From Massalongia carnosa (lineage: Eukaryota), in NCBI GenBank assembly GCA_965645245.1, contig OZ287070.1:2108001-2172000 (forward strand): DNA of 64,000 bases. Direction: 5' to 3'. The notes under the pieces are model-generated. The model worked only from the letters and a program-made list of their open reading frames with translations, was not told the DNA's origin and did not search any database. Position numbers and translations under genes: made by a program. Every line of letters begins with the position of its first letter. The first letter of the stretch is position 1. Shown piece by piece: positions 16,901-63,900 of this stretch.

Positions 16901-19900
16901 TCAATATTCTTCTCGCCTGAAGCGCAGCAATGAGGGAATGATACAGATAAAATAAATTATAGTAAGTAAATACTGGTTGGAAAGAAAGCGTTGTGTCTAC
17001 TTTCTTCAGACCTTCAGAGTGACTCGTACAAAGTTAGCGAATACGGATCGTAATCCATCGACGAAGGAAAAAAGTACAGTCGGTCACAATAGGTATCCGC
17101 ACTTTCAGCAATATTCTCTATTTTGGTTGATCACAACGGAAATCCATATATTCAATAACTGGCTACGATGTTTCGTTTGATGACTTTGATATATAATATA
17201 GGGGAAAATGTCCGAAATCGGTATATTAAATTGGGGAAACCAAGCATTATATCAAGTTCCACCATGCGGATTTTCCCAACGAAAGGATACATGAATAAAA
17301 AACCCTGAAATCAACTTCTCAACTTCTATCTTTCACACAGCCATCACATTAACCTTTCAGTCTCTCATGCGTATGGCTTTTTCATATAAACCTAATATAA
17401 TATTCCTTACATAGCAAAAAAATTCGAGATTCTTGACATTTATTTGCCTCCTATATCTTACCTATGGTGGTTTAGACTTGGAAGAGGAAGTCCGAAGATA
17501 GAAGACTCCTGACCTGGGCTAGAAAATATACTAGACATGGAATCGGAAAATTGATTGATTATGATGAAGCAATTGGTAAGCTTGAGATAGTACGTTTAAG
17601 CATATTTGCATAGATTAACAGGATAAGGAGATTGGTTCCAGTCAATAAAGAACTCTCAAGAAAACATCCGGTTTCTGCGGCCAGACATTGTATCTTTCAG
17701 CATGGCGATACGCAGCCAGTCCGTACTTAACCGTTTCACAGCAAAAATCCGCAAGAAGAGAGCTCCTCTGAACGTTTTGCTGTTTGGGATAGCCGGAAAA
17801 CTTCAAAGAGCAGTATATTACGGCATCAGCAAGATGGTTGGCAGATGCAAAATTAATAATATATGATCGATAACAAACCGAAATTAGAACAATGAAGTAT
17901 TGATAAAATAAATCCAATATGAAAGACCTGGCGTTGGCATCCAGAGGTCTCAATTTTCATCAAAGTTGCTTAAGGCATCAATCAAACGCGCAGGAGATCT
18001 ACCTAACTATGTTGCTTCGCTCTCGGATTCCAAAAACTATCCTCAACATAAACCGATAGAAAGATCCGACAATAGCCGCGTCTTCTACCCCCAAGATGCT
18101 CACTCTTCAAATGTAATGACTGAACCAAATTAGCATCTGGCCTCAGGATATTTACTGTGCAGGTTATGATGAAGAATACTTATAAAGTCTCCACAGAATA
18201 TTCAATCAGGGCACTATGAAGATCAGGGGCGTTCACCTTGCACCAGCTTTCCTCACAAACAATTTGGGTACCCGATAACTAGGGAAATTTTCAATCGATA
18301 ATTTCGGAACAAGCTCCTCGACGGCGAGTTATGATAAGTCTCTGCCGAGCTGCATAACTAGATTTGAGACATAGCGATGTCCGTTGCAGGAGGTTTACCG
18401 CATGAGCGTTAACAGGACAGGGCCATTATATGACCAGGTTCCAGGGAGTCTAAAACAGCTAAGCTATTCGAGTATACCAGCTTTCTTTCATGGTAGATCG
18501 CAAATTTCTGCATTTACAGAGGTTACACGGCGAAAATGTTAATAAGCGCATGCTTACGATGGGATTCAGCTAGGTATTCGAGCCAACCAAGATACTAGAA
18601 TTAGGCTGGATGGAACCTACCCGGCTAGTCTGGTTCCTTGCCGGACTATAGGGCAACATCAGACAAGATTCATGCAGCTGTCGAAATTAATATCCCTTGT
18701 TGAATGCAATAGGTGGTAGACGATGTCTGGACACCGGCTTAAAGCAGCTAGCCAACGATAAACCCAACTAAAGCATATCAAACGCTGTGGATATAACGAC
18801 GTTAGCACAGCCTAACAACTACCTTACAAACAGTTTTCCATATTCCGGTACGCGGGGAGTATGCGGGTAGATGAGCGGGAATTATTGTCATTGTTTGAGC
18901 TGCCGTTTTCAAGGAGAGACTACAGTATATCCTCGAGCAACTTCATTTTATCAAAATTGCCATCAACGAACGACGATAAGATACCCTATATGGGCAGCCG
19001 TGCAAGGGAAGTATACCATTCCCGCCGAACCTATGGCTCCAAGAATATTCGCCAGGGGAACAGAAACCAGCACCAGTGAACCCATGTGGGCATCGTACAG
19101 ATAGGTCTAGCATTGAAGATTTCACTAATATGTTAGCGGACTCCCCGCCGCTCCGACTCGCCGCCGTCGAGGCAAGAGATCCCCACAACCTTCGTGAAGC
19201 AGATTTGAAAATGGGGAGTTTTTATGGTGGTGAACGGTCCCAGGTATCTCCAAGGACTAAAATAACCATGAACTGGCCCATACTTGCTATAATATATATG
19301 TTAATTAATTAAAATGAGGAAAAGTAAAAAAATCTGGCTCAATACGCTGCTGAAATAACAGGGTTGGTGATACATATGCGCTGGCTGGATGCTGGGTCCA
19401 CGTGGCGTACATGGAGGCCCTAAGGGGTTTGGGGGGGGAGCAGTTATAGGTGAAGAGAACAGGTCGAGAACCAACTGGAGTTGTGGCACGACTATATAGT
19501 AATGGTCATGGAATGACCATTATTTTCCAAGGAAATGGAATATTAATCTTTGGTAACTCCGGCCAAAAAAGCGGCTAAAATGAACCAGGCGGGCATAGAG
19601 TAGATCTCTACAATGTTGAAACTCATTCTCAGAGATGTGGAATCGATAATAAAAAGCAACCGGATTTAAGAAATCGACTTTATGCAATTATGGCAAGAAC
19701 GAGGTTGGACAGCAACAAGCGGTTATACTCCATTTAGTGTTGGGGAAACTGTCTCTTGATGGAGACGAAAGACTTTATAAGAAATATATGCCTATACATA
19801 AGACGACTGAAAAGTTCAGGAACAAATACACACTCCTCGCAACGCGTAAGCAGGCACACCATATGTACGGCGATGGCGACTTGTCTATACCCGTTTGTTT

Positions 19901-20709
19901 CTAAACATCAGGGAGCTCTACGGAAAGGGGGGTATCCTATAGGAAACCCCATTACCCGGAAAGGGACGAGGTAGAGATACGACAAGGCGTTCACCAGCCG
20001 TATGTGTGTGGTAAATGCGGTTTACTTCTACATAAAGCTACTTCGACCTCGCTTCCCGGAGAAGAAAACAGAAGAAAAGCTTTCGGGATGCGGTGGGGCT
20101 GAAACTGATGGCATTTCGTCAATGTTCCGACAAAGAAAAACACCAGGAGCATATAACCGGGATTGCTCAAATCATCACCCCTGCGAACGAGAAAGAGACG
20201 AATGATCAGGGGATGTGCCCTAAAGGTTCTTATAACAGAGGAGGGGATTCAACGTTGTCCCAAAACAACTAGCCACAACACGTCAAATCCGAAAAAAAGG
20301 AGTTACTCGAGGTCTATAGAAGAAGAGCCCTGCAACAACTCGATTTCATATATTATAATATACTATATCGATTCCAGTGAGCTTGCGGATTCCACGAAGT
20401 TTGAATATTGGTAAAGTTTCCGGTTGGGACTTACGTTCCCCTTCAGCTCGTTTCAAAAGCTGCGATGATCAACGATTCATCTCACGTCGGTCTCTTCTGA
20501 AAGATGCTGCTCGGTCAACGGGGTCCGTAATCTACCAGTACCGTGCTGTGCCGGTGTCTTGTGGAGTGTAAAGCAAGCAGTCAGTGTTCTGTAAATTTTC
20601 TCGGGTGCAAGTGGCAGCCGTAGAAGATGAGAGAGGCGAAATGTTCCTATAGGAATCATGGTTAGTTGCGGAAAAATTGGAGGGAGATGACCCGTTGTTT
20701 TTAGGTTTA

Positions 20710-20784
20710 CACCCGTTTGCAAAATGGTGTGCCGAACTTTGAACCCCGAGACTGCGCGACCACACACCAGAATTTGGTGCAGTA
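20710..20784 (+). repeat. Outer part of the left TIR of element B
   Basis: 20710-20758 is the reverse complement of 26981-27029. 20758-20784 is a 27-bp block repeated directly at 24494-24520. Confidence 0.92.
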
Positions 20785-20834
20785 CTGTCGCTTGCAAAAG
20801 GGTCTGCGCGGACCCTGAAATGGCCACGACACCT

Positions 20835-20994
20835 CAAAATTTAGCGAAAATAACGACCAACCAGCCAAACTTCCCTCACCGTCTATGTGATAACTATGCA
20901 TTACTACCTGTTCTAGTACTGAAATTCGTAGCTGTAGAATATAGTCACTGCCATCCCCAGCTCCTCCGCCCTTGCCCGCTCTATTTTTCGTCAA
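20835..20994 (+). repeat. Left long inverted repeat of element A
   Basis: 160 bp, reverse complement of 24287-24446 with about 6 mismatches by eye. Ends just before the transposase ATG at 20996. Confidence 0.93.
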
Positions 20995-20995
20995 G

Positions 20996-22035
20996 ATGCC
21001 TCGCCCCCTCAGTCCCGCCATGAGGGAGACAATTACCCTCAGATTTGTAAGAAATGACGATAACAAAAGAATAGCAGCTGTCACCGGAGTCAGTCTTCGG
21101 CAGGTGCAATTGATGAGGTCCAATTGGACGAATTTTGGAGACGTCGTCGCTCCACAAATAACTCTTGGTCATCGACCTAGAAAGTTGAGTCAGTATCATG
21201 AATTGCAACTGTTGGAATTCCTGGAGCAACGCCCCCATGCCTACCTGGATGAAATGTGCTGGTTTGTCTGGGATGAATTTCAGATTTCCGTCGACGAATC
21301 CACTGTCAGTCGTGCCCTCAGACGACTTGGTTGGAATCGAAAGAAGGTGAGACGTCAGGCAGCTCAACGGAATCAAACTCTACGCGACGGTTGGATGCAA
21401 CGACTAGGAGGTTGGACTGCCGAGCAATTGGTCTTCCTAGACGAAAGTGCCGCGTGTGAAAGAACCGGTATTTATCTTCCTATCTTCTTCTCATCTTTCT
21501 TCTCATCTCATATATAGGTGATCGTCGATACGGCTGGGCACCGGCCGGTGTTCCTGCGACCATGGTTCAGGATTTGAGAAGGTCAAAGAGATGGAGCATT
21601 CTTCCTGCATTTACGGTCGATGGATATATAGCTTGGGAGGTGCATCAGGGCTCCATAACTGCATTGATCTTCAATGATTTTGTTCTAAATCACGTCCTTC
21701 CTCATTGCACTGCCGACGGAGGTCCTAGATCTGTTTTAGTGTTAGATAATGCTCGAATTCATTGGAATGACGATCTCATTCAGATGTGTGAGGCTGCCAA
21801 CGTCACCTTGGCAAGACTACCTCCTTATTCTCCGGATTTCAATCCAATTGAGACGTCGTTTGCATTGCTGAAAGCATGGATTCGTCGAAATGGAGAGATG
21901 AGTCTCTCATATACAGAGGTGTATGGAGGGTTCGGACAATTTCTTCGGGATGCAGTCAAAGAAAGAAGTCGAATGGGAGACCCGGGAAATTTATTTAGAA
22001 TGGCCGGTATTCAGTATCCCACTATTCAGATCTAG
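20996..22035 (+). CDS. Tc1-family DD34E transposase (HTH + DDE_3-like), 2 exons, apparently intact, 329 aa
   Basis: Exon 1 is 20996-21467, followed by a 50-bp GT-AG intron (21468-21517) and exon 2 at 21518-22035. Catalytic motifs VFLDESA, LVLDNARIH and LPPYSPDFNPIE, with 34 residues between D2 and E. N-terminal HTH regions RIAAVTGVSLRQV and VDESTVSRAL. Confidence 0.95.
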
Positions 22036-22086
22036 ATCTAGATTGCTGTCTGCAGACATCTTGTCTGTCTCATTTCGAAATCTAAT

Positions 22087-23841
22087 CTAATATTCTTCTT
22101 CGGCATAGTCGTATTCTAGATTATACGTATTTTCCAACTCATCCTCCTCAATGGCATCTTCCATTCTCGGATCAACCCTTTTTATCTCCCCTAGTGTCTC
22201 ATCCACCTCTTCCTCATCCACCTCTTTTATGACCTGAGTATTGGCCTGAGTGGTCATTTGCGAAGTTGGCAGGTAACGTGGACGTCGAGACATTTGCCGA
22301 GACGGGGGCGGAGGCATTCGCCGAGAGGAAGGCGGAGGCATTTGCATCTGCATCTGTCTTCCAAATTTGCTGACATCTCGTGCCAGCTGAATTCCGATAC
22401 CGGGAGGAATACTCAGCTTCGACCAGAAGGACTGATGCTCAATACCCTTTAATGTCTGGATAGTCATTAAATCGTACCCACCTTCCATCAGTCGATCGTA
22501 CGCATGCCTAAGTACGCCTTTCAGATGAGGTTTGGATTGGATATGCCAATTGACATAGTCTTCCAAATCTTCCTCCACTGGACTGCTCGGAGCGGCGGGA
22601 GGGGCGACGACGGAGGGGGCATAACTTCCTTGACGATCTCTTCGATCCACAGGCGTTTCGTCTCGATGACGTCCGAAGTCGGAAGCTTGAGAAGGAGAAT
22701 AAGAAGGAAACTGGGACGAATGAAGCTGGGGAAGTGGTGAAGAAGGAATAAATGCCGAGGGGTTGGCAAATGCTAAGGGGTTGACAAACGTCGAGGGGGG
22801 GGCAAATGCCCAGGGGGGGAAGGATTGATACGCGGGATGCTGATAGATGGGATGCAAATGTCTGGTCGAATCTTCCTGACTTTCCTGTTTCGGAGTCGAT
22901 GATGCAGTCTTCCTTTTACCTTTTTGCGAATACATACTTTCCCTGATAGTCGATGGAGGCATCTGAGAAGTGACTCCCGAAACGTCATCATCCAATGCCT
23001 TATTCCAAGCCACGAACTGATGACTGCTGATAATGTAATGTTGATCTCTTTCTTCATCGTTCCAACAGTATCGGCCGAAATTCTCACATGTCTTCTTATT
23101 ACAGACATGCAGAGATTGTAGAGCCGTCATTCTTTCAACTGTCTGACCATGAAGAATGGCCCTCTCCTCCAACTCCTTCTGCAATTTCAAGGTGGCCGTT
23201 CCCAACTTTTTGGAAACGGCAGCAGTCGGATCTTCTGGAATTTCACCGCTTTTGGTCCGAGCGAATTGATAGATTAGATCGACGGCCAAACTTTTTGCTC
23301 CATTCTCATATCGGAAAATCAAGACTTCTTCAATTGGAAGCCAAGACTCTTCCAACATCAGAGACATACGTTCTTGAGGTTTGATGCCATTCCATGCAAC
23401 AGTGGCTTTGACATTGACTAGTCGACAAGCAAAAGTTTTGTCATCTGCATGACGTTGAGCCTTTAAACTCATCTCATTGAGATGAGGTCTGAAAAAGAAT
23501 CTCTTTTCGAATTCCGATTCCGAGTTAACTTTTCGAGTACTGGACATCTGATGAACGACATCCTTTTCAAACATCACCGGCACATTCAGCAGGTAGGTGA
23601 TGACAATGGGCGAGTCTGACGAGGGCGTCTTCTTGGTCTTGGTACGTGGATTTGACTTTGGCTTTCTAGTAGTGGCATTTTTGACAATCTTCTTTGCAGC
23701 AGAAACGAAAACATTCTCCTCAGCACTCTCGACTTCTTCCTCAACATTCCCCTCGGCAATCTCCTCGACATTCCCCTCGACATTTTCTACATCTACGTCA
23801 TTCTCCGAGTCAATTGTATCATCTTCGTCATCCGGGACCAT
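22087..23841 (-). CDS. Transposon A accessory protein (584 aa): acidic/basic N-terminus, Cys/His cluster, P/S-rich linker, SAM-like helical domain, acidic tail
   Basis: Long uninterrupted ORF inside the TIRs of A. Contains HVCNKKTCENFGRYCW..H and YDLMTIQTLKGIEHQSFWSKLSIPPGIGIQLARDVSKF. The same frame continues to an ATG at 24264 but is blocked by stops in the 20-bp repeat. Confidence 0.8.
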   Translation of the reverse strand: MVPDDEDDTIDSENDVDVENVEGNVEEIAEGNVEEEVESAEENVFVSAAKKIVKNATTRKPKSNPRTKTKKTPSSDSPIVITYLLNVPVMFEKDVVHQMSSTRKVNSESEFEKRFFFRPHLNEMSLKAQRHADDKTFACRLVNVKATVAWNGIKPQERMSLMLEESWLPIEEVLIFRYENGAKSLAVDLIYQFARTKSGEIPEDPTAAVSKKLGTATLKLQKELEERAILHGQTVERMTALQSLHVCNKKTCENFGRYCWNDEERDQHYIISSHQFVAWNKALDDDVSGVTSQMPPSTIRESMYSQKGKRKTASSTPKQESQEDSTRHLHPIYQHPAYQSFPPWAFAPPSTFVNPLAFANPSAFIPSSPLPQLHSSQFPSYSPSQASDFGRHRDETPVDRRDRQGSYAPSVVAPPAAPSSPVEEDLEDYVNWHIQSKPHLKGVLRHAYDRLMEGGYDLMTIQTLKGIEHQSFWSKLSIPPGIGIQLARDVSKFGRQMQMQMPPPSSRRMPPPPSRQMSRRPRYLPTSQMTTQANTQVIKEVDEEEVDETLGEIKRVDPRMEDAIEEDELENTYNLEYDYAEEEY

Positions 23842-24000
23842 TAGGGATGCATAATAATTCGAGCCGGGAGGCGGCCTGGGCTTGATAATGGGAGGGGGCT
23901 TTGCTTTGGGAGGCTTTGCTTTGGAAGACTTTGCTTGGGGGGGGCGCTTTGTCTTGGGAACGATCTTTTGCCTGCGAGATGCCTTCGGAGCTGAGGTTGG

Positions 24001-24146
24001 CGTCGATATGGGATCATCGTCGTCGCTATGGGATCATCGTCGTCGATATGGGATCATCGTCGTCGATATGGGATCATCGTCGTCGATATGGGATCATCGT
24101 CGTCGATATGGGATCATCGTCGTCGATATGGGATCATCGTCGTCGA
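24001..24146. repeat. Tandem repeat, 7 copies plus a partial copy of CGTCGATATGGGATCATCGT (20 bp)
   Basis: Directly visible. One substitution in copy 2 at position 24026. Confidence 0.97.
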
Positions 24147-24286
24147 CAGCATCTTTGCCCTTCGGCCCCGCCAAGGTCAGTTTTATCTTTGCCTTTACAG
24201 GCTCTGTCGAGGCATTTGGAGGCCCGGTATTCGCTCGTTTTGAGCGAGGACCTCTTAGTTTCATGTCGAAGAATGGGGGGGATAAT

Positions 24287-24446
24287 TTGACGAAAAATAG
24301 AGCGGGCAAGGGCGAAGGAGCTGGGGATGGCAGTGACTATATTCTACAGCTACGAATTTCAGTACTAGAGCAGGTGACAATGCATAGTTATCACATAGAC
24401 GGTGAGGGAAGTTTGGCTGGTTGGTCGTTGTTTTCGCTAAATTTTG
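24287..24446 (-). repeat. Right long inverted repeat of element A
   Basis: Reverse complement of 20835-20994. Ends 22 bp before the ATG at 24264 on the minus strand. Confidence 0.93.
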
Positions 24447-24460
24447 TTTGTAAGCGACAG

Positions 24461-24570
24461 TAAAAAAAAAAAAAAAAATAAGCGACAGAATTGGACCACA
24501 CACCAGAATTTGGTGCAGTAGCTAATAGCCCTCCTCCCCTTCACACTGCCCTTTGCAGTCTATAGGATAA
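24461..24570 (+). repeat. Inner part of the left TIR of element B, displaced by element A
   Basis: TA-polyA-TAAGCGACAGAATTGGACCACACACCAGAATTTGGTGCAGTAGCTAAT..GCAGTCTATAGGATAA is the imperfect reverse complement of 26876-26979. Confidence 0.9.
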
Positions 24571-24635
24571 TATGGTTAATGATATCCTTTTGATTGTCGT
24601 TTGTATGAACTTTCAACGTAGTTATTCCAGTCATC

Positions 24636-25453
24636 ATGCCTCGAAAACAGCCTCCTAAACAGCCTTCAAAACAGCCCCCCAAACAGCCCTCCAAACAATC
24701 ATGAAAACGGGCATCTACTACTGAATTACCTAGGAACTCAGCACCTTCATTTAAACAAAGGCTTAGAATCAATCCTCCCTAGATCATCATCACCAAGTTT
24801 AAATGCTCGTATTCCTGATCTTCCATCACGTCCACCTTTACCATCTCCTCCAGCTTCTCCTTCGGCTTCGCCTTTACCTCCTCATCGTCTCCTCCTCCCC
24901 GAGCCAAGGAATGTCCGTCCGACTCGCAGTAGTACGCCTTCTCCTTGTCTTTCTGAGCTATCTAGTGCTCCTGAACCTGAGCCTGAGCCTGAGCCCGAGC
25001 CTGTTTTGTTTACTCTGATTTACAAACCAAACCATTCAGCAGTGGAAAGGTACTGTTTATGAGGAAAAATGGGAGAAAATGGGAATCGAACCTGGCATCG
25101 GCATACGTTTGGCTCGCGATGTCAGCAAATTTGCTAGACAATTGAAGCAGCAGTCATCCGAGCACGATTCTGAACCTATAATTGTTCCTCCTCCTCCATC
25201 AGAATCACGTACCTCTAGTCAATCTTTGCCAAAGAATTTCCGGCCAAGCTTCAATGTACGTCCGCTAACTACTGGGACTACACAAAAGGCTTTGAATGAC
25301 GAGGAGGAGGGAGAGGAGAAGGAGGAGGACCTTGACGAGGACGAGGAGGAGGAAGAGGAGGAGGACAATCAGGAGGACGAGGAGGACGAGGAGGACGAGG
25401 AGGATGAGGAGGATGAGGAGGACGAGGAGGATGATACGGAAGACAGTAGCTGA
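24636..25453 (+). pseudogene. Accessory gene of element B, homologous to 22087-23841; carries nonsense codons and an internal deletion
   Basis: ATG 24636 gives MPRKQPPKQPSKQ, with TGA at 24702. After about 25030 it reads QTIQQWKGTVYEEKWEKMGIEPGIGIRLARDVSKFARQL, matching MTIQTLKGIEHQSFWSKLSIPPGIGIQLARDVSKFGRQM of A. It ends in an E/D tail. The central Cys/His region is missing. Confidence 0.82.
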
Positions 25454-25477
25454 TGAGGAAATTGATTTTTATGAGTT

Positions 25478-26812
25478 TTATTCAATACTAGACTGTCGAA
25501 ACAATGCACCTGCATCATGTGAAACATCTTCACTTATAGCCTGTAGTGCTATGAAAATATAGCTTCACTTTGTAGGTATAATAGCATGATTGTCATTGAA
25601 GGTGTGGATTATATGTGAGCTATCTACTCATTATATAGCAGTCACATTGAAGACTTTCCGGCGACCCCCTTTCATAGGGAGTCAGCTGGTCCACTGATTC
25701 TCGGTCCCCAGAGGTCACTTCGGCCCCCGTGGTAGGGTCACCAAAGATAGGCACTAGACGGATGCCCATGATGGTAGTCTAACAGTTCTTACCATCTAAC
25801 ACTTACCCTCTAACAGTTCTTACCATCTAATAACTAGATGGATGTTAGATGTTAGTCCTTACCATCTAACAAGTGCATCTTCTAAAAATCTCCCAAATCC
25901 ACCAGATTCCTCTATATATGAATCAATTAAACTACTGTGACGTTTAATCCAGGCCTTAAGAATAGAGAATGAAGTCTCTATTGGATTAAAATCGGGTGAT
26001 TACGGAGGCAAATGAACCAGCAAAACATATGCATCCTGACACATGATCCTCAATTCCTCACTCCAATGTGTAGAGGCATTATCCATAATCAAAACCGAAC
26101 GAGGACCATTACCTCCAGCGCAGTATGGTAAAACCTTGAGCCTGACGAATTCATTCAGAATATCTGATATTATAGAGCCATGATGCACCTCCCAAGCTAT
26201 GAAACCGTCGATGGTGAACGCTAGTAATATACTCCATCTCTTAGAAAGTTTGAGCGCTTGAATCATGGTCGGTTTGATTCCTGGTGCGGCCCATCCATAT
26301 CGACGATCACCTAAAGTAATAACAATTAGCAAAGAAACTGAAGTTCTTCAAATAGTACTGACCAGTATGCTCGCATGTAGTGCTTTCGTCCAGAAAATCA
26401 ACTGATCAGCCCTCCATCCTCCCAGTCTAATCATCTTCTCATCACGCAAAGATTGGTTGCGTTGTTATGCTATACGAATAGCCATCTTTCGATTCCAGGC
26501 CATCTGTTTAAGAGTTCGAGAAACCGTAGACTCGCTCACCAAAACGTCGAATTCATCATACAAAAACCAGCACATCTCGTCCAAATAAGAGGTAGGTCTC
26601 TGATCCAGATACATGAGTAGTTGCTCGATTTGTTGTTGATTCATTTTCTTGCGCCGGCCAGTAGCAAGCTGAGGTTTTGCAACCTCACTGAAATGTTCCC
26701 AATTATGTCTCATCTTACGTAGTTGTCTAATGCTGACACCAGTAGCATCTTCATCCGATTCCAGTCTGAACTTTATAGCCTTGCGTTTGATGATGCTGAA
26801 TGATCGTCCCAT
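25478..26812 (-). pseudogene. Tc1-family DD34E transposase pseudogene of element B
   Basis: ATG 26812, with motifs YLDEMCWF, LDES, DRRYGWA, LIMDNASTH and LPP*SPDFNPIE. Stops at 26465-67 and 26000-02, frameshift near 26397. Intron 26362-26311 is at the same position and phase as in A. The C-terminus LQAISEDVSHDAGALFRQSSIE* resumes after the insert at 25550-25871. Confidence 0.92.
25550..25871 (-). mobile_element. Solo-LTR-like insertion (322 bp) in the transposase of B
   Basis: Flanked by the 5-bp direct repeat AGTGC (25545-49 and 25872-76). The minus strand starts TGTTAG, ends TTTCATA and has an internal TATATAA. Removing the insert restores the transposase frame. Confidence 0.8.
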
Positions 26813-26875
26813 GTTTGCTTTTGAAACTACGAGGTAGCAAGAATAAAGATCTACATGAAAACACTACATATCATT

Positions 26876-27029
26876 TATCCTACAGACTGCAAAAGGTGGT
26901 GTGAAAGGGAGAAGGGCCATTAGCTACTGCACCAAATTCTGATGTGTGGTCCAATTCTGTCGCTTAATATTTTTTTTTACCGCGCAGTTTCGGGGTTCAA
27001 AGTTCGGCACACCATTTTGCAAACGGGTG
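26876..27029 (-). repeat. Complete right TIR of element B (about 154 bp)
   Basis: The outer 49 bp pair with 20710-20758. The inner ~105 bp pair with 24461-24570. Confidence 0.9.
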
Positions 27030-30000
27030 TATTGATCCAAAGCGATCATCACGTGAGAAATCCATGCTCGGGAAATGGAATATGTATCTGATGGGCTATG
27101 TGTTGTCTCTGTAAGTAATATTTACCTTTCAGATGCTTCAAACCACTTCGAAGAATATATGCGAATGATGATGAAACCGTACACCCCATCAAGATGACGA
27201 GTTTCGGTGCCGCAGAACTAGTTTTTCTTAACCCAGTTATCCGGTGATGAATGTTATCGTTCCTGCAAGTATTTCTCGAGGAAGAAGAAGAATCCGCTCT
27301 CTTTCCACACTCAAAAGTCATCTATAGGAAGGAACGGCACTCCCTTTAGAAGCTAAAGTATGAGATCACCCGGAAACCTCAACTGAGGGACTTTTTATAA
27401 GCATGGTCGATGTTTCCTTCCGGCGTGGAGGAGACACCTTCCAGCCGAGGTTGTGACGTCCGAGGTCTTGCAGAGGAGCGAGATCAAGCTGCCTAAAGCA
27501 CGTTTAGTATTTCTCATGTTCACGATTTAAAAAAAATCTCCTCTATTTCAAAGCCCCAGTGCGCAACAAAAAGTTCTTGTCCGCCTTCGATAGGATGCAG
27601 AAACCGTGATATCAACACGGAACAAAACATAGCCTTGGCGGTGCAGAAGGTCTTACTCTGAAAGCAAACTGAATTACAATCGAAGCTCAATCGGGTCGAA
27701 AATGATACATCTTCACTCGATGCCAATATAGACATGGCTCAGATCCAGAGCTTTTATGGTATTTAAAGAGTAACCAGAGTGCTGTTTCTAAAGGATCGAA
27801 GAAATGAATGACATTGCGTTTTCAAAAAAAAAAAAATTTTACGTGCAATATCCAACGGGGCAACTATTATAAAAAGCTAGCGCAGACTAGATTCTCTGCT
27901 TGCCTACGAGACCCGGGGAAATTCCAAATGATATTTCCCTACGCGTTCGAAGAGGTCTGATACACATGTGTGGACGAGGGTGGAACCAAAATACTCAAAC
28001 TACTCCACTAGTTTAGTTCTCCACCGTGCAATCACTAGTTCGGCTTTGAGACCTGTCGTGGCGTATTAAATGAGCTAGCCATAGATCTCACGATCTGTTC
28101 AACTTTGTGACCTCTTCGTTCGCCGAACATCTCTGACCGAACATCTTGATCTAGATCCACCGGTCTTCTGTGCTCGTCTAGAGCTCTGGTTTAGTTGTAG
28201 ATCGGCTTTCTTTAGGCGGTAGGGTTGGTTTGCGGGGACTGCATGGGAGCTTCTTGAACCACTGGGCGAGGAAAATTCTTGTTGACGATCGTAATTTATG
28301 CAGGAGAGTCTCTTGGCTCATTTGCGAAGCGCAATCTAGAGTTTTCAGCAAACCCTTTGCTAATCATATGTATTGGGCAACGCAAAGTGTTGGGCGGGCA
28401 TTAATTCTCATTGTTTCGGACTTGTAGACCGTTGTGAAATGTGGAATCGATTCCGCCCCTATTCGACTCCGAATAGTTGAAAACTCAAGACCAAAACGTT
28501 GCATTCGAAGAGGGTGTGGTCTTCAAACTCAGCACTTTGGGTCCCGTGATCCTCCTCCTCTTCAGATGGCTAGTCTTCCAAGGTTATCAAATGGGAAATT
28601 TAAAAAAGGAAAAGAATGCTGAGATTGAAAAAAATCAGAATAATATTAAACCCCTAGCTTCCACTTGCCAAGATTTTTGGGATCAACAAGTCTAATATTA
28701 ATCTCGTACCCTATAGAACTTGTTCATATTTTCTTTCTTCATCATCTATTCCCCATCTCTTCTACATACTACCTTCCCTCTATCCTTCTGCGGTTACATC
28801 ACATTGCTACTCCATTTGGCATCAATGGCAGCTAAAGTTTTAAGATATGGTCTAAGCGGGCAACGCAGGAGGATAGAACTGCCTTGCCAAAAGTTTCAGG
28901 ACCAAACGAGAGAATTTTGGTAGCTGGAAATGTTGTGCGTGCAGGTTGAGAGACTACAGCCAAAAAATCTTGAAACCCAACCCTAATCGGAACGCGTATA
29001 TTTTATGGTCGTGCTTCATTCTATCAAGAGCTAGCCTCTTCTATTCTCCGACAAGGAGTCTGACTGTATTCAACAGCGTCTTGATGGTCAACATCTCACT
29101 CCTTCATCTAAATTGGGCTTCGCTTTATAACCTGGGTGTCGAGCGCTCTTCGGCAACTTCTCTACAAGGCTAGTTATTTTCCATTAAAGATAGATGTTCC
29201 TGTTGGAGTACTAGTACAGTCCTACCAGCACTTGCCCTAGGCACAAGCCGGTGAACCCACATACAGTAGTGCACTTCTTTACGGGTGCACCTGGCCCATC
29301 GGGGAACTTAGGCTAAATCGTCAGCATTGTTGGTAAAACCAGTTATCTTTCAATGGTTATAAATTATCTTCTGTCTCCCATTAGATGTGCATCCAAGATG
29401 TCTGTTTTGTATAACAATACCTACGTCTGTCAGTCTAGTTCATGTGACCTCGTATTGCTTCTATTTCTAAGGTTGGCGGAAACACAGCGATCTGCACCTC
29501 GCTGGCGCCGTCACTCTCGCCGGCGCCTCTACCTAGCGCCCCCTTTCGGGCCTTGTGCAGATCGCGGTGGATACTCCCTCTACCTCTGCGGCTGAGACCT
29601 GGAGTGGGTGGGCGGGTCAAAAACTACTATGCAGTGCTAACTCCGAATCCGAGATGATGAGGAGATGTAGGACTGCTTTGGCCCTCTATAGCCTCCATCT
29701 CCCCCCTGTCATCCATCCTTCCCTACCCGACCCCCCGTCGTTATCCGAACCAGCTCCTGGCGGATAACCGTGCAAAACCGAAGAGGTCCGGATTTTGCAT
29801 CACCTGTTGTCCCCGTCATGCGTGGAGAACCGCTGGTAGTCGATCCGCTGGTAGCCGAATCCGCTGGTAGCCGAATAGCATCAGTCCCGCACTAGCTCTC
29901 GCCATAGACGAACTAGTAAGTGAAGCATCTTTCTCAACATTCCGTTGTTGCTATGATTGCCAACAGCTGTAGGGATCCAGGAAATCCAGAGTTTCAATGT

Positions 30001-32222: not shown

Positions 32223-33419
32223 ATGGCATCCGCCAAAGCGATCGTTCGGCGGGCTCTTCTATACGGTATGTAACAGGTATTTTCATTTCCCCTGATTAGA
32301 ATTTAATTCCTTTGATATTATTATTGTTGTTGTTTTTTAAAAAAAGAAAAGAAAAGAAAAGCAAGTTCAGTTCAAGAACTGATCGATTGATTGACCGCTT
32401 TCCCCCCAAAAACAGTGCCCGGATCCTCGCCGAAAATGCTGGACAAAACCCAGCACATGAGTGTCGACTGCGTGGCCTACGATCTAGAAGATTCCGTGAC
32501 TCCGGGCAAGAAAGCGGAAGCAAGAGCGAATGTCCGCAACGTTCTACGCCGACGACCACGTGGCAAGGGGGTCGGGGAATATGCTGTGCGGATCAATTCG
32601 GTAGGGAGCGGGTTGGCCGAGGATGATCTCACGGCGGTGGTAACAAAGTTCCCTTGCGCGCCCTATTACCGGCATCACGTGGTAATAATTCATGGCGCCT
32701 TACGTACATAGCTATCGGTGCCTCAGCTAGATACGCTCGTCGTTCCGAAGGTGAACTCGGCCTCTGACCTCGTTTTTGTTACCGACTTGATGAGAAGCCT
32801 CCAACCGCGCAGACATGCCGTTTCTCCATCTGCAGATCCTCAAGAACCCCCGCCCATCAGCATTCTTGCCCTAATCGAGTCTGCCAAAGCCCTATCTGAC
32901 CTGTCGAGCATCTGCAAATCCACCCCCTATCTCTCCGGCTTGATTTTTGCCGCTGAGGATTTCGCGTTGGACCTTTCCTTGACCCGAACGCCCTCTCTCC
33001 ATGAGTTCTTGTACGCACGCTCAGCGATCGTTACTGCATGTCGAGCACATGAGCTGCCATCGGCCATCGATCTCGTATGCACTTCATACAAAGACGCCGA
33101 AGCCCAACGGACGTTGGAAGAAGAGTGCGTTGGAGGTAAAGGGTTAGGGTTCAATGGCAAACAGTGCATTCACCCAAGCCAGATACCGATTGCCCAGAAA
33201 GCTTTCTCGCCTAGTGGGGAGGAGATTTCGTGGGCGGCGAGAATCCTGGCTGCGAACATGAAGGCCGAAACACAGGGTAGAGGCGCATGGACCTTGGATG
33301 GGAGGATGATCGATGCGCCTGTGATTGGGAAAGCAAAGAGCATTGTGGGTAAAGCTGCAGTTTGTGGCATGGATGTCAAAACAGCTCAGGAGAAGTGGAG
33401 CTCTCAGGAACCGGAGTGA
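32223..33419 (+). CDS. Citrate lyase beta-subunit-like / HpcH-HpaI family lyase (CLYBL/citramalyl-CoA lyase-like), 3 exons
   Basis: Exons 32223-32265, 32416-32639 and 32712-33419. Motifs RRALLYVPGS, YDLEDSV, AVRINS, LIESA, IFAAEDF, GFNGKQCIHPSQ and GRMIDAPV. Confidence 0.92.
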
Positions 33420-45532: not shown

Positions 45533-47556
45533 TCACATTTTACGTGGTGGACGAACAATACGACCTCGTCTGGTAGTTTGAACCTCCTCCACCGCCTTCA
45601 CCTCCTCCACCTCCTTCACCTTCTTCACCTCTTTTGCCCCTTCTACTGTCTCTTTCGCCTCTGTGGTTGGATAGAGCATGAGGGGGGGTAGTAATCGTCT
45701 TTTCGAAGGACTATTAGGCCTTCTTTGTGGACTACAGAATTCTTTCTGAGAACTTTTCGATTGGGATGCGGGAGACGATTGACCTAGTAAATCAGGCCCA
45801 AATCGACACATTTCTCTGAATGCTTTGTTAAGGTCTTGCTCCGCTCGTTTTAATTGAGCGGCTTTCTTTTTGTCGTCCTTTATCTTCTGTTGATCTTTAG
45901 CCCATTGCTGTCTTTGTTGAACGTCTTCGAGGCTGAGGACTCGAGCCTTTCCACCAAAGTGAGCTCCGCTACGATTGGCTTTATGATGCCGCCGTACATT
46001 GGCCTGAAGAAGCTCGTTGTTGGTAATTCGAAGCAAGGTAGAGTCATCAAAGGCATATTTGGCCCCTTTTATCAATTTGTTTAGCGCTCGAGCGGGTGTC
46101 GAGTCTGAATTTTCATCATTTCTAATTCGACGAATCAGTTGATTTACTTGGTCGATATTTGCAGGTGTCTTTTCTATTTCGACGACAGCTTGCTGAGAAT
46201 TCTGAAGAACTGTCGGAGTGCCAGGGTCAGAGGCCGACATGATCTTCGGATCAATCCCGACACTCGAGGTTCTTGTAACAGTAGTGATAGTGGTAGTGGT
46301 GGTGGTGGTGGTGGTAGTGATGCTGTCAGTCTTTCGCAACACCGATTGTTTGTTAGTGAGTTTCTGAAGAACTAAAGAAGGATTGTATGGCACTAATCCG
46401 GTGGCTCTCCATGCGGTAAGCACTTTTTTTTTGCTGATTGCTTCTTTCCTTGCTTTTTGTATGATCTTCAGAAAGTCTACCTTGTCGACAGAACAGACGT
46501 TGAATCGAGTGACGATCTCCAACTGTTTTTTATATTCTCGTGATAGAGGTCCGAAAACGTTCACGTCTAGAGGCTGTAGTAAATGTGTAGTATGAGGAGG
46601 TAAACATAAAGGAACGATTTTCTTCTCATTGCAAAACTTAATGAATTCAGTAGAAATATGAAAAGCATGACCATCTATCACCAAAAGTCGATAATTTCCC
46701 TGTAAATATCTTGCTGTAGCAGGTTCAAAACATCTTTTCAGCCAATCGACACCCAGTTCGTTGTCTGTCCATCCATTTTCGCTGGTAGCGATCTCGCTGT
46801 GAACATCTTCCAAAACATCATACCAGGTCTTCTGTTTGTTTACCCCTTTGAAAATAACGAAGAGGGGTAGACTCCGGCCAGTAGTACAAATGGCCTCGAT
46901 TAATGACACCCATTCTCGATTAACTGATTTTACTGAAAATGCTTGCTTTTCGTGTTTAGAAATTACAACTTTAGCACTAGCTGCCACTCCCATCATGAAC
47001 CCCTTTTCGTCCATATTGTAAATGTCTTCATCAAGAATTCCGTGTTTTTCTTTGACAGAGAGAAAAAGATCGAACCAATGCTGAAAATCTCTTCATTCTC
47101 CGCAAATAAGCGTTCTTGATCTAATGTGCGACTGTATTTGGCCTGCAAATCGGAATGACGATGTAAAAAGTGCTGTTGCCAGTTTACTCCCAATGCAGTA
47201 TAATTTCCCCTCGCTCGCAATAATTCGATGGCCATCTGACGCAGTTGAGCGACTTTAGCAGGCCAGCCCCAAGCGTACAATTATAAAACCCAGTCCTTCA
47301 AAGCGTCTTCCTCCTCGGGTGTCAATAGTTGTCTAACTTGATCTGATGTAAATCGTGATTGACGACCCTGAATGCGAGCATGAAGAGTAGACTTTGAAAC
47401 TGCATACAGAGCAGCTGTCTTCGTGATGGACAGAACTCCGTCAGCTTGTTTCCAGGCCTGAAAAGCTGATTGTAATCGCTGCTGATATGCGGAGGTCGGG
47501 TGAGTAGATGGAAGCTGAAAGGTTTTTTTATGGGTAGAGTTTTTACAAACACCCAT
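45533..47556 (-). pseudogene. Fot1-like DD35D transposase (psq/CENP-B HTH + DDE_1), disrupted
   Basis: ATG 47556, with HTH region AALYAVSKSTL and LTPEEE. TAA at 47281-83 and a frameshift near 47085. Catalytic motifs YNMDEKGF, LVIDGH and HLLQPLD, with 35 residues between D2 and D3. Confidence 0.93.
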
Positions 47557-47803
47557 GATTATGATATCTAAATTGATGATATTGATCAATTATAATTAGG
47601 GGTTTTCACGGTTGATTTTCAAATTTCAGGTTTTTAGGGTTTTATTTTTCAGGTTATCAGGGTTTGGCGTTTAGGCATGAGTGTGCCCCGAAATTATTAG
47701 AAAATTTTAATTCTAATGCTTAGTCATTCAATCAGACGTTACCAACCTATTTTCTAACTTCTCATCTTCGATCGAGGGGACATTCTTGTCATTTTAAATA
47801 GTT

Positions 47804-49012
47804 ATGCCTCGTGTCAGCTGCAAAGTGCAGCTGGAAAGAGATTTGCGTTGTCTTTACTTTCTACATGATGCTACTGCATCATCATCGGATGAATCGGATG
47901 AAGCATTGAATTTCCTACTTCTAGCAGAAGGAATTCAAGAACAGCGTTATTTAACGCCCCGATTATTCGTTCCCAAATCCAATTGGGCGTCAGCTGTCCT
48001 TCCCAACCTTTCGGATGATCGATTCCGAAGTCTGCTACGCATGAATCGCTTTTCCTTTGATCATGTTCTCGGCTTAATTCGAAATGATCCCGTCTTTTTC
48101 AATAAATCTCGTGTCCCTCAAGCCTCCGTGGAACATCAGCTAAAATACGCTCTTTTTAGAATGGGACATGACGGTAGTGCCAGTGGATTCCTTCCTACAG
48201 CTACCATGTGGGGGATATCAGAAGGGCATGTTTTTAACTGCACCAAACGGGTGATAGAAGCACTGTGTCGGCTAAAGAATGACTTCGTTCAATGGCCCAG
48301 TGAAAGAGCTAGGATAAGAGAAAATTTGACCAATGATCAGAGACAAGATGGATTTATCGGGGTCGTTGGCAAGGTGGATGGTACCGACGTTGTTCTACAT
48401 ACAAAACCAGGTGGTAAATACGAAGGCGAGCTATTCTTCAACAGAAAAAAGAGATACGCGATGGATTTGTGTGCCGTATGTGACTCGAATAAAAGGTTTA
48501 TTTACTTTCTCAGTAGATGGCCAAATTCTCAGCATGATCAGCGTATATTCGCCGCAGGTGATTTGTGCCGGAATCCCGCCTTTTATTTCTCTCCCGGTCA
48601 ATATCTATTGGGTGACAGTGCCTATACGAATTCCACGTATCTGGTGACTCCATACAAGGCGCCGCATACTAGAGATCCGGATATTCGTCGATTCAACAAA
48701 AGACTGTCGCGAATTCGTATAGACATAGAACATGCATTTGGAATTCTGAAAAGAAGATGGAAAAGTCTGACCGGGCTGAGAATTCGAGTCAGGAACAAGA
48801 AAAGCTATACCTACGTCATCAAATGGATAACTGCATGTGTGGTGCTTCATAACATTCTTCAAGACATTCGAGATGAATGGAATGAAGAAGAAGGATGGTG
48901 GACAGAAGAAGAAGAGGCACATGACGAAGAATTGAAACAGCTAATCAGCAGTCAAATGACTGAAGGTCTGATCACAAGAGATCAGGTTAAACGATTGGTC
49001 ATCGGCAGTTAA
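47804..49012 (+). CDS. PIF/Harbinger (HARBI1-like, DDE_Tnp_4) transposase, 402 aa
   Basis: Open ORF with FRSLLRMNR.SF, GKVDGTDV, FFNRKKRY, WPNSQHD, YLLGDSAY and RIDIEHAFGILKRRW. Confidence 0.93.
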   Translation: MPRVSCKVQLERDLRCLYFLHDATASSSDESDEALNFLLLAEGIQEQRYLTPRLFVPKSNWASAVLPNLSDDRFRSLLRMNRFSFDHVLGLIRNDPVFFNKSRVPQASVEHQLKYALFRMGHDGSASGFLPTATMWGISEGHVFNCTKRVIEALCRLKNDFVQWPSERARIRENLTNDQRQDGFIGVVGKVDGTDVVLHTKPGGKYEGELFFNRKKRYAMDLCAVCDSNKRFIYFLSRWPNSQHDQRIFAAGDLCRNPAFYFSPGQYLLGDSAYTNSTYLVTPYKAPHTRDPDIRRFNKRLSRIRIDIEHAFGILKRRWKSLTGLRIRVRNKKSYTYVIKWITACVVLHNILQDIRDEWNEEEGWWTEEEEAHDEELKQLISSQMTEGLITRDQVKRLVIGS

Positions 49013-50170: not shown

Positions 50171-51214
50171 TTACCACTTCTTTTGAGTCTTCTCCAACTC
50201 AATTTGTAGCCTCATCATCTTTTCCTCGTGTTGCATTCTACTTATGGCAATCATTTCTTCCTGTTTGAGACAAATCTCTTTATGATGTTGATCTCTTTGA
50301 CTGGTTTCAGCATCAAACCGCTTTTGAAGTTGAATTTGTTCGAATTCAAAGTGTTTACTGAAGTCATTGGACTTCATGATCTGCACCTCAACCAAGGCGT
50401 CTGCCACGGATCGGACTTTTTCCCGTCTGAATCCTCGTTTGGTAATGACTTTTGATCGCGTGTCATCACTGTCCGAATCTATCTCCAAAGGTCGTTTACG
50501 ATGGCCACGACCAGGTGTAGGTGTAATTTGTTCAGTACCAGAGTCAGGTGTGACTTTTTTATTCCTGAGTGCATACTTTTCTTTGGCACGTTTAACCAAA
50601 TCAGTCTTTGATTTTGAGATATCATCTTCTAGCCAATGACCAGCATCAGATAACTGCCTATTCATGTCGCTATCACCGTCTCGAGCCGGTTTTTCATAGT
50701 CCTCCTCATCGATGTTTTCAACTTCCGTATCTTCCGCATCTTCTTTTCCTTCAGCGGTACCAGGTCTTTCGGACTCCATTATGTAGGGTGGAGTGATAGT
50801 GGGAAGATCTCCCATAATCTCTTCCAACTCGTAGTAGAAAGGGCATTTCTTAATCAAGACCTCCTTGATGGTTATTCCCCGCGTGTTTTCCGCCACTACC
50901 TCATGTTTTGTTGGATCTACCCCCCATCCCGTCTGATCCGCGAGGGCCCTGGTTTCTTTGAAAGATTTAATCATTTGGGCGACTTTATCTCTGGCTTTTT
51001 CCTTGGATACATCGGGTCGTTGAGCACTCAGTCCAGACTCCAACAGCATTCTTCTACAAGCTTCTACCTTGTTTCCTTTTTGATAGAGATAGAGATTGAC
51101 GGAAATACCCTGATCGTCTCTGATACAAAGCCATTGAATGACTAGTTGAGTGTCTTCATCTTTCCCACGGATATTGGGACCTCGAGATCGAGTTGGAAGA
51201 GTGATGGACGTCAT
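50171..51214 (-). CDS. Harbinger-associated Myb/SANT(trihelix)-like DNA-binding protein, 347 aa
   Basis: Open ORF inside the TIRs, convergent with the transposase. The pattern WL..KVAQMIKSFK..QTGWGV..IKKCPFYYELEEIMGD and a C-terminal coiled coil fit the second protein of PIF/Harbinger elements. Confidence 0.85.
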   Translation of the reverse strand: MTSITLPTRSRGPNIRGKDEDTQLVIQWLCIRDDQGISVNLYLYQKGNKVEACRRMLLESGLSAQRPDVSKEKARDKVAQMIKSFKETRALADQTGWGVDPTKHEVVAENTRGITIKEVLIKKCPFYYELEEIMGDLPTITPPYIMESERPGTAEGKEDAEDTEVENIDEEDYEKPARDGDSDMNRQLSDAGHWLEDDISKSKTDLVKRAKEKYALRNKKVTPDSGTEQITPTPGRGHRKRPLEIDSDSDDTRSKVITKRGFRREKVRSVADALVEVQIMKSNDFSKHFEFEQIQLQKRFDAETSQRDQHHKEICLKQEEMIAISRMQHEEKMMRLQIELEKTQKKW

Positions 51215-51296
51215 GTTTAATGATTAGGAATGATCAAGATGGAGATGATAATAATTGAGTTAAAATAAACCAGCTAAGATAACCTAAATAACGTGA

Positions 51297-60918: not shown

Positions 60919-63900
60919 ATGCCTTTCTTCTCGAAAGTGTTTAAAAGTAAAGACCGGGAAGGCGGGGTCTCGAAGTCGAAAAAGCACTCTCAAGCAAATG
61001 GAGCAGTTCCAATTCCACCCCCAAAGCCCCGCTGGGATGATGCTTGGCAGCGGAAAGACGTGGAGCCGGAGGAAATCCAGGAGTTACTGAGAGGATGTAC
61101 TCATGAACTAAAATCCCGAGGTTTGCGGCCCCGCTGATTTGGCTCGAGTATCTACAAGATGGAACGGTGATTAAGCTGACTGGCTACGTTCTTCAGCGCT
61201 GGATATGCCTTTCCTCCTTCTCCCCTTTAGACCTGCGTCGGATCCCAGCGCAGCCCGCAGCTTCATTCGTAATTATTTCAACCCCGACAGAGGATTACAG
61301 CTTCAAGGCGATCGTTTAAGTCAGGAGCTCTTGCTCACTGAACCCATGGTGAGTCGATCAACATTTAGAGGAGATAGGCTTGCTGAAAATATGCAGGTCC
61401 TTTGCAGTGTGATGAAATGGTGCTGGAGCAGATTGGCTGGTGGGGTGGTGACATGGGAGGCATATGAACTGTTTCGTGTTGGGGAGCAAGGTATGACGAT
61501 CGCGTTGCTCTCCTAGGCTTAATTAACATTACGGGTAGATTCCGACATGGCTCGTGACGCCTTTGCTACCTTTATCCCAATCAGCGTAGAGTCGGACGCC
61601 CGGACGAAGATTATCTTCGACTTTTTCGACCTTATGGCTGCAATCGCTGCTCATGGTAAAACCAACGGAATGGGAGGCCGTAAACTGTCGAGGTTAGCGG
61701 GTTGGTGGGCATTCGAACAGGTCGATCTTGGCAATGGCTTTGACGGAGGATACAAGTCCTGGTCTAGGTTGGTTAGCTGTCATACTTGACACTTCACCCT
61801 GCTGACGGGTGTAACAGTGCTGCGGATGCAGCGAGCCACTTATTTTTCGCATATCTTCGATCCCTTTCCCCGGACTCTGTGAAGGGAACAAACGGCATTT
61901 CGGCGCTACCCTTATCACTGCAGGCTCTAGTTCAAGCCACAGAGTACCCGCCTGAGCAGCTGAACATGAGTCCCACGTCGAAGGTCGTGATGATTGTCGA
62001 TTCTGTTTCACCTACACCTTTTGCTTTGCTCCGCCGTGCCAAGCATTTTGAGTACCGTGACGACGATCGAGCTTTGCAAGAATTTTCCAACTACGACGAT
62101 CCTGTGCAGGCGTTGACCGAGGAGTGTCGACGGGTGCTCTACAGTATCTCATCCACAAACCAGTCAACAGTCTCTACCACAAAAGCTTCCACGAGCCTTG
62201 GGGATGCGTCTTGGTCACGATTTGAGGATATTGGGTTCGGCGGGTTCGGAGATTATTCTGATCATGAGGATGAGGCAGAAGGCTCTGCCTTGGGGAAAAA
62301 ACGCAAAGCACCACCGGGTCTAAGGTCAGCGCCACAGTCCAAGACCCACGATCTTGGCCGCCCAACAACGCCTTCATGGGCCGATTTTCTTTCCTCGGGA
62401 TTTGTTGATGAGACCAACAATAGTCGACCGGCACCTCTTCTACTCCCATCGGATAAGATACTCCCACCCATAGACGGTAGACGAGGGCAAAGCTCACAAT
62501 CTCACCGTCGTGCTGCAGAAGATGGGTCTAACCTAGAGCCTGGAGAGCTTGCAAGCATCAACAGCATTTACTATGATGATGCTTTCTGGTGGGTCTGGAT
62601 AAGTAGTCTTGCCGGCGAGGAGACCACAGAGAGAAAGGCCGTCTTTGGAAGATGTGCATTGATTGAGACGACGATGAAAGGCGGGAAATGGCTTATCATA
62701 GAAGAGATTGTCAAGGGTGCAGCGCCAGAGCCAGATCAGGGGGCTTATATCGCAGAAAAGAAGAGCCGATTTGGCTTCAGTAAGAGGGGGAAAGTGACCA
62801 GGACGAAATCCATGAGCAGGAAATCAGGGCCTCCACCAATCACGCAGCCATACACACGGAGCAATCAGCCTTCTCCTCTGAGCAAAACTAGTATCGGTCC
62901 CGACCAGCATGCACGGATACAAGCTGCCGCAGCGGTGTTGCAACAGAAGCAAAAGCAGCACGAGCGAGATGCCACAGGTCCCCGAAGGGCCAGGATGGAA
63001 GATGCAACATCGACCAAAACGAACAGTGTCTTCACACTGCAACCTGTCATCATGAGCGAAGCAGCTCCTGCGATGAAGTGGGCCAACTCTTATGACAAGG
63101 ATGCAATCCGCGCTGCGTATCTTGGTAATAATTTTACCGGCAAGGGATCTACAACAGACCTACGAGGTCCTGCAGGATTCTCCAACTTCGAAGACCATAA
63201 TGGTTCTATGACACCGATGGCGCCCAATGGGTCTGCTCATAAAAATGGCGGCAACATATACGACCATGGGGGTGGGTTACCTCGGAACGATTCCGGTCTT
63301 ACAGGAAAGGACTTAGCAAAGGACAGAGATTTACCAGCGCTTCCACCGGACATACCTCAACAACCAGTGTCGAATGAAACGGCTACGCAGGCAGCCAAGG
63401 TTCCATTGCCAGCCATCACCCCTATGGAGAATGCTCGTTCATCTGACGTGAAACCACTGTCTCCTACTGGACAATACTTCGCTGGTGTGGATGAGCCATC
63501 GCATAATGTATTAGATGCTTCTGCGCAAGAAGTGACTAATGGCACCGTTTCATCCAACTCTTCACCCGAGAGTAAGAAGGGTAATATGAAGCTCCCTAGA
63601 ACACAAGGTGGTGGATTCAAAGGTTTCTTTGGCAAGAAGAAGACGGGAGCCGCGGTCCCGCCTGCGTCGCCGAAACCTGTGGATAGTACAGCAGTAGCAG
63701 CAGCCCGTGCGGCTTATGTCGGGCCTCAGATGAAGCCAAATTACAATAGTAGCCAAACCACTTTGGGACGTCGCATGTCCCTCATCGGGCGGAAGAAGTC
63801 GCCTCCAGCGCCAGCTATGCCACCTCCGGCGGTAGAACCGGTTCAGGACGCAGAAAATGGAGATACCGCTACGCCAATGCCTATTCCGGCCAACCGTTTC

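Follow-up and report, generated by a model that had tools for sequence, protein, structure and literature searches.

We analyzed a 64,000-nucleotide (nt) stretch of the Massalongia carnosa assembly GCA_965645245.1 (contig OZ287070.1, positions 2,108,001 to 2,172,000; hereafter the window, in whose numbering all coordinates are given) and identified at 20710-27029 a single TA-flanked insertion of ~6.3 kb. The region probably represents a nested pair of cut-and-paste transposons of the Tc1 family (DD34E) in a filamentous ascomycete that is also represented in a lichen metagenome; the elements would come from a lineage carrying two genes arranged tail to tail, of which the second is possibly a partner of the transposase. 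Element A (20785-24462, 3,678 bp) is intact and bordered by TA on both sides, with terminal inverted repeats (TIRs) whose arms measure 176 and 210 nt. Element B (20710-20784 plus 24465-27029, 2.64 kb) is decayed. Both feature TIRs and a TA target-site duplication, as expected for Tc1 elements, and depart from the usual single-gene state between the TIRs in that those of A enclose a convergent open reading frame (ORF) of 584 amino acids (aa), termed ORF2. This second gene is likely an inherited part of the mobile unit and not a single capture. We base this assessment on its occurrence inside the TIRs, at the same place and in the same orientation in A and B, on a contig of a related subfamily, A', with a collinear ORF2 match, on similar nonsynonymous divergence (dN) of both genes and on a conserved protein family with invariant residues.

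An earlier sequence-only reading had treated A and B as two separate elements with different TIRs. Alignment of their ends leads us to consider it very probable that they are a nested pair, with A residing in the left TIR of B, and not two neighbors. The arms of A, which runs from CTGTCGCTT after the left TA to AAGCGACAG before the right TA, are ~96% identical over their 176 and 210 nt except for a single 36-nt indel. Excision of A together with one TA joins 20710-20784 to 24465 onward and recreates a left arm of B that matches the right arm (26875-27029) over ~185 nt with a single 23-nt indel. In addition, the outermost 51 nt of the insertion, 20708-20758 and 26981-27031, are identical at 50 of 51 positions and both belong to B; given this outer pair and the match of the rebuilt arm, the leftmost 51 nt were assigned to B. 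A repeat search of 20000-28000 recovered three inverted pairs at 20835-20994/24287-24446 (160 nt, 96%), 24467-24570/26875-26978 (104 nt, 90%) and 20708-20758/26981-27031 (51 nt, 98%); the blastn E values of the three TIR pairs (3e-71, 2e-35 and 2e-18) are far above chance. Furthermore, an exact 27-nt direct repeat connects 20758-20784 and 24494-24520. A blastn comparison of the region with the whole 64-kb window detected no additional copy. The arms of A and B do differ, as previously proposed, but their termini are related, sharing 13 of the first 18 nt. The features of the insertion are as follows.

20708-20709, no strand: left TA target-site duplication, both of B and of the complete 6.3-kb insertion (sequence; empty-site contig of run X5, see below)
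20710-20784, plus: B left TIR, outer part, with the outermost 49 nt and the 26-nt motif M at 20759-20784 (51-nt pair; arm alignment)
20785-20994, plus: A left TIR, starting after TA with CTGTCGCTTGCAAA and reaching the transposase ATG (aligned to 24287-24462 in reverse complement)
20996-22035, plus: transposase A, with exon 1 at 20996-21467, intron at 21468-21517 and exon 2 at 21518-22035 (Pfam, splicing)
22036-22086, no strand: 51-bp spacer between the convergent stops of A (ORF coordinates)
22087-23841, minus: ORF2A, 584 aa, intact (ORF, profile, fold model)
23981-24166, no strand: 20-bp tandem repeat of ~7-8 units, lying between the start of ORF2A and the A right TIR (repeat search)
24287-24462, minus: A right TIR, ending in TTTGTAAGCGACAG before TA (repeat search, alignment)
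24463-24464, no strand: TA right of A, forming with TA 20783-20784 the target-site duplication of A (sequence)
24465-24570, plus: B left TIR, inner part, with poly-A, AAGCGACAG and a repeat of motif M (24495-24520; 104-nt pair)
25019-25453, plus: ORF2B remnant, comprising half the SAM-like domain and the tail (tblastn, profile)
25454-25477, no strand: 24-bp spacer between the convergent stops of B (frame without the insertion below)
25478-26812, minus: transposase B pseudogene, with intron at 26311-26362, interrupted at 25545-25871 (alignment)
25545-25871, no strand: 327-bp very high-copy short-repeat insertion in transposase B, with AGTGC on both sides (contig joints, depth spike)
26875-27029, minus: B right TIR (repeat search, alignment)
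27030-27031, no strand: right TA target-site duplication of B (sequence; empty site)

Motif M (ACCACACACCAGAATTTGGTGCAGTA) ends in the TA that served as the insertion point of A. It is present as an extra copy in the left arm of B and missing from the right arm of B and from the copy in another organism (organism C, below). The motif holds a near-palindrome (CACCA..TGGTG) and may represent a binding site of the transposase. In addition, the 9-mer CTGTCGCTT at the A terminus (20785-20793) recurs in inverted orientation in both B arms (24480-24488 and 26958-26966), beside poly-A. This recurrence within ~250 nt is too unlikely by chance and might reflect either a former terminus or a binding site common to both elements.

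Public sequencing data provided an unoccupied version of the locus. Among Logan contigs from runs designated X1, X4, X5 and X6, a 10,959-nt contig of X5, a run labelled lichen metagenome, joins 20696 to 27026 and skips 6,329 nt. It covers 18501-20696 and 27026-28202 with eight letters between, and its two flanks carry 12 and 16 differences relative to the window. This contig is an empty TA site in a related strain, with the gap bounded exactly by the two TAs. At 20704-20709, the empty allele has AGGTGTATTG where AGGTTTATTG is predicted from the filled allele; this difference, seen on one contig, is either a single-nucleotide polymorphism next to the TA or the one-base footprint of an excision. 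B-like pieces with ~95% identity were also found in organism C (X6), where the outer terminus adjoins 24490 with no A between them. The flanks and A in X4 are identical to the window, so that X4 cannot be counted as independent of the source from which the window came.

The window is eukaryotic and contains spliceosomal introns, which also occur in both transposases (A, 21468-21517, 50 nt; B, 26311-26362, minus strand, 52 nt). After splicing, the A transposase is an intact protein of 329 aa with 34 residues from the second aspartate to the glutamate, counted on the spliced protein, which makes it a DD34E enzyme. Pfam DDE_3 matched A in exon 2 (3.3e-20) and also matched B (3.9e-6); in exon 1 of A, which encodes the N-terminal paired-like DNA-binding region, the helix-turn-helix (HTH) model HTH_33 scored above its cut-off (2.8e-7), with HTH_32 and HTH_23 under theirs. 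The two transposases share 166 of 321 residues (52%), and both introns split the same glycine codon of TGDRRYGWA after its first base. The DD34E Tc1 type, the clear divergence of the enzymes and the shared codon and phase of the intron, all noted in the sequence-only reading, were thus borne out. The B gene carries two in-frame stops and one frameshift. Removal of 25545-25871 restores its C terminus and a stop at 25478-25480, and other copies lacking this 327-bp piece were observed as a 25544-25872 joint in X4 and X5 contigs. Of the two spacers reported between the convergent genes, the 51 bp in A were found as such, while the 24 bp in B exist only once the insertion is removed. The closest transposases in a protein collection were fungal proteins annotated as 'Tc1-like transposase DDE domain-containing', with up to 61% identity, and 75 of 549 candidates from the transposase search reached E ≤ 1e-20. 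When metagenome contigs were searched with exon 2, none of the 28 pattern matches proved to be a relative.

ORF2A is an intact frame of 584 codons on the minus strand (22087-23841), convergent with the transposase. Its product comprises a beta-grasp/PB1-like part (aa 81-196), a C-C-C-H module (C247, C252, C259 and H268), a proline- and serine-rich linker, an SSPV motif (419-422), a SAM-like domain (423-500) and a basic and then acidic tail. A Pfam scan of ORF2A returned no match and no Myb domain. As had been stated before, a convergent second gene lies inside the TIRs of both elements and the two are homologous (30 of 57 identities, tblastn E 4e-12). The B version, however, is a C-terminal remnant: a family profile built without B matched only 25019-25450 (E 4.4e-19, profile positions 460-562), and ORF2B retains just the last ~100 profile positions. 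Only 818 bp separate the left arm of B from the ORF2B stop, too short for the N-terminal two thirds of ORF2, so the beta-grasp and C-C-C-H parts have no space in B. The basic, proline-rich start formerly attributed to ORF2B is a 22-codon ORF (24636-24704, MPRKQPPKQ...) upstream of the remnant in a different frame, and joining the two is unsupported. Between A and B, dN amounts to 0.33-0.40 for the ORF2 C-terminal domain, close to the 0.32 of transposase exon 2; synonymous divergence (dS) is saturated in both genes, hence no dN/dS ratio is given. These similar values fit, only weakly, an equal age of the two genes. Upstream of ORF2A, the number of units in the 20-bp tandem repeat (23981-24166) differs between copies, and an X1 contig omits 120 nt, corresponding to six units.

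To place ORF2 in sequence space, we searched 1.84 billion proteins; family counts refer to representatives of clusters at 50% identity. An exhaustive profile search yielded 196 representatives at E ≤ 1e-3, 73 at ≤ 1e-10 and eight at ≤ 1e-30, compared with three family proteins from a word-indexed search and six when the profile was used. Of these six, one comes from a Leptodophora species and is called hypothetical. The 90% cluster of protein P0001 has six members, a further sign of repetition. In an alignment of 25 long members, C247, C252, C259, H268, W279, P295 and S419-S420-P421 were invariant in all 25, and many relatives begin with a basic MP..K..RKRRSST stretch. Lengths among 151 matches were <150 aa (47), 150-299 aa (60), 300-499 aa (22) and ≥500 aa (22). 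The prevalence of short forms (107 of 151 below 300 aa) suggests decaying repeat copies; metagenome fragments could look alike. Pfam analysis of 35 long members gave nothing for 33, a DUF7924 fragment for one and a hit under the cut-off for the last. The ORF2 profile found one row among PDB sequences (E 0.27), no meaningful match, and P0001 alone produced 194 pattern matches and no relative among metagenome contigs. ORF2 is a member of a previously undescribed protein family.

Structure prediction with AlphaFold2 (AF2) from 140 aligned sequences gave confident blocks at 80-205, 230-310 and 425-500, with pLDDT ≥90 at 248 of 584 residues. With an aligner independent of Foldseek, for which Z 8 is the noise bar, residues 81-196 resembled the PB1/beta-grasp structure 4mjs_A at Z 7.3 (root-mean-square deviation (rmsd) 3.0, 85 of 88 residues aligned) and residues 423-496 the SAM domain 5jti_A at Z 6.4 (rmsd 2.6, 61 of 63). 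RAD51 and RAD51C N-terminal domains were also among the matches of the SAM-like block (RAD51C 8gj9_B, Z 5.4), which contains a PGIGxxLA sequence that we take to be an HhH hairpin. The C-C-C-H module folded alone (pLDDT 82) reached a best Z of 4.5, and Foldseek retrieved nothing for it at E ≤ 0.001. For the whole ORF2 model, weak superantigen-like Foldseek rows (E ≥ 5e-3, rmsd 8-10) were discarded as generic beta-grasp resemblance. A complex prediction for the two transposase exon products with ORF2 75-510, run without controls, scored 0.00, which does not count for or against binding.

Sequencing depth was compared as ratios, which are not strict copy numbers. In X1, a 1,699-nt contig over ORF2A has a depth of 3,057 versus 422-458 in three contigs of the single-copy flanks (~7x); the corresponding values in X4 are 21.6-32.8 and 4-5. 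Transposase bins exceed those of ORF2A because the related subfamily A', with a transposase ~87% identical to that of A in DNA, adds to them. In X5, A' is represented by a single 2,511-nt contig (depth 380 versus 26 for flanks), in which a 125-nt match to 22463-22587, encoding the ORF2 C-domain, follows the transposase in the same order and strand; 22904-24371 has no cover in this run. For the 327-bp insertion, the bin 25473-25839 has a summed depth of 76,870 versus ~458 for the flanks in X1. It is therefore a very abundant short repeat, perhaps resembling a miniature inverted-repeat transposable element or a short interspersed nuclear element; ARAGORN detected no tRNA-like part in it.

Tc1/mariner elements are the textbook minimal transposons, with one gene and two TIRs, and form the base of widely used gene-transfer tools. 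With fungal and animal DD34E elements such as Tc1 and impala, the pair shares TA, TIRs and a transposase of ~330 aa with an N-terminal HTH pair and DDE_3, but differs in its convergent 584-aa gene inside the TIRs, the 3.7-kb size of A and TIRs of ~180-210 nt. PIF/Harbinger elements are two-gene transposons encoding a transposase and a Myb-like DNA-binding partner. They likewise represent cut-and-paste units with a noncatalytic second protein and provide the model for the mechanism proposed below, but they use DDE_Tnp_4, a 3-bp duplication and a Myb/SANT partner, in contrast to DDE_3, TA and an ORF2 without Pfam match here. In maize MuDR, mudrA and mudrB are convergent and driven from the TIRs. 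The shared layout consists of two convergent genes between long, near-identical TIRs, each gene starting beside a TIR; MuDR belongs, however, to the Mutator superfamily with a 9-bp duplication and has no sequence relation to our elements.

The general statement in the sequence-only reading that Tc1/mariner elements encode only a transposase describes the usual case, with exceptions: the DD34E elements TBE and Tec of ciliates, which belong to the Tc1/mariner superfamily, have three ORFs, so that members of the superfamily can hold extra ORFs (PMC7325037). In TBE and Tec, the additional frames specify a zinc-finger protein or a site-specific recombinase, or form a small ORF. The TA-flanked fungal Tc1/mariner element TremE of Paracoccidioides is reported to have two ORFs of 335 and 217 aa, 27 bp apart, with siblings of the same length (1850-1891 bp) encoding single proteins of 544-559 aa (PMC2836289). 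Since the TremE ORFs total 552 aa, about the size of the sibling proteins, we infer that they correspond to one split pogo-type transposase and not to a true second gene. A literature search, with Repbase and Dfam outside its scope, retrieved no Tc1 element from fungi that carries a genuine second gene.

Several observations weigh against parts of our interpretation and were considered together with alternative explanations. For the architecture, the alternatives are two side-by-side elements that lost their facing ends by deletion, which we considered first and dropped for nesting after the end alignments, or an assembly chimera. Among the matches listed, no contig bridges the A/B junctions at 20784/20785 and 24462/24463 (the repeat 24452-24489 being skipped), and the left arm of B carries a 23-nt extra motif copy relative to its right arm. 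Because no contig spans these junctions, nesting rests on sequence logic, the X5 empty site and organism C. Adjacent elements would nevertheless require a 50/51 end match between two otherwise different transposons and leave the TA on each side of A unexplained, and neither organism C, with a B terminus lacking A, nor an empty site extending exactly from TA to TA agrees with them. We judge a side-by-side or chimeric origin extremely improbable. Only slightly more credible, and still very improbable, is a scenario in which the ORF2 family consists mainly of host genes and the copies here arose by independent capture or chance adjacent insertion. Linkage to a transposase is seen only for A and B in this window, plus the hint for A' on one contig, and the remaining ~190 clusters could be host genes. 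Both ORF2 copies, however, lie within TA-flanked TIRs, the whole block is missing in the related strain, and independent capture at the same place and strand, 24-51 bp from the transposase stop, is very unlikely.

More serious, though still unlikely, is the possibility that ORF2 is cargo, a host gene captured once by the ancestor of A and B and maybe kept for a selfish or host-directed effect with no part in transposition. The bins of B sum to 21-61x flank depth in X1, well above A, although ORF2 in this copy is a remnant, which argues that intact ORF2 in cis is not needed for spread. ORF2 also lacks similarity to any known transposon protein, and its Leptodophora relative appears in the annotation of that genome as an ordinary hypothetical protein. 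A separate point against our own interpretation is structural. The PB1 and SAM matches span whole domains but stay under the noise bar, Foldseek found nothing at E ≤ 1e-3 for the whole ORF2 model, and the Pfam HhH, SAM and PB1 models did not match ORF2 even at E ≤ 10. Mere cargo is disfavored by the retention of position, orientation and a very short spacer at 52% transposase identity, by the similar dN of both genes and by the abundance of short family members, as for decaying repeats, with the proviso on metagenome fragments given above. Inheritance of the second gene, which the sequence-only reading had also preferred to a one-off capture, therefore gained support from its shared location and orientation in A and B, the A' contig, the similar dN and the conserved family. 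Of the functions put forward in the sequence-only reading, none (regulator, targeting factor or anti-silencing factor) found support here. A role of ORF2 in transposition is a more tentative proposal, and we are rather doubtful that the entire family of ~200 clusters is a dedicated Tc1 partner, required or strongly stimulatory for transposition.

Beyond the insertion, the window contains further mobile and host sequences. Frames of nearby transposons are located at 45536-47092 (minus), 47798-49009 (plus) and 50174-51223 (minus), and include one frame of the pogo/Fot1 type (DDE_1, 7.6e-30) and one of the PIF/Harbinger type (DDE_Tnp_4, 1.7e-29). Beside the latter lies a 350-aa frame with no Pfam match that might be its partner gene. 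A further repeat at 29143-29500 has a depth of 4,708 versus ~422 for its surroundings in X1. Ordinary host genes are represented by an HpcH/HpaI aldolase-like frame (32712-33416, plus) and an Msb1/Mug8-domain frame (61777-63999, plus).

From these data, we propose a sequence of events in which B would have inserted first at a TA, with A entering later at a TA in the left TIR of B. If ORF2 acts in transposition, the fold models suggest a noncatalytic partner whose PB1-like and SAM-like modules may mediate self-association, with the Cys/His module and the hairpin of the SAM-like domain possibly binding DNA or chromatin. By analogy to the Myb-like partner of Harbinger, it might support the transposition complex in assembly, import or targeting. 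Transcription of both genes could start from promoters in the near-identical TIRs of A, as in MuDR, and stops only 24-51 bp apart point to overlapping 3' ends, with antisense self-regulation as a possible consequence.

Should ORF2 prove to be a transposition partner, this lineage would represent the first two-component Tc1/mariner system outside ciliates and a counterpart of Harbinger's Myb-like partner made of polymerizing modules. A second well-folded protein kept through deep divergence would show that Tc1/mariner elements can evolve partner dependence, and a new protein family would gain a testable role. For fungal repeat annotation, ORF2 copies are probably called host 'hypothetical proteins'. 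Element A appears young and intact; it exists in ~7 copies that are nearly identical, a related strain has the empty allele, and a direct test of these ideas should therefore be feasible.

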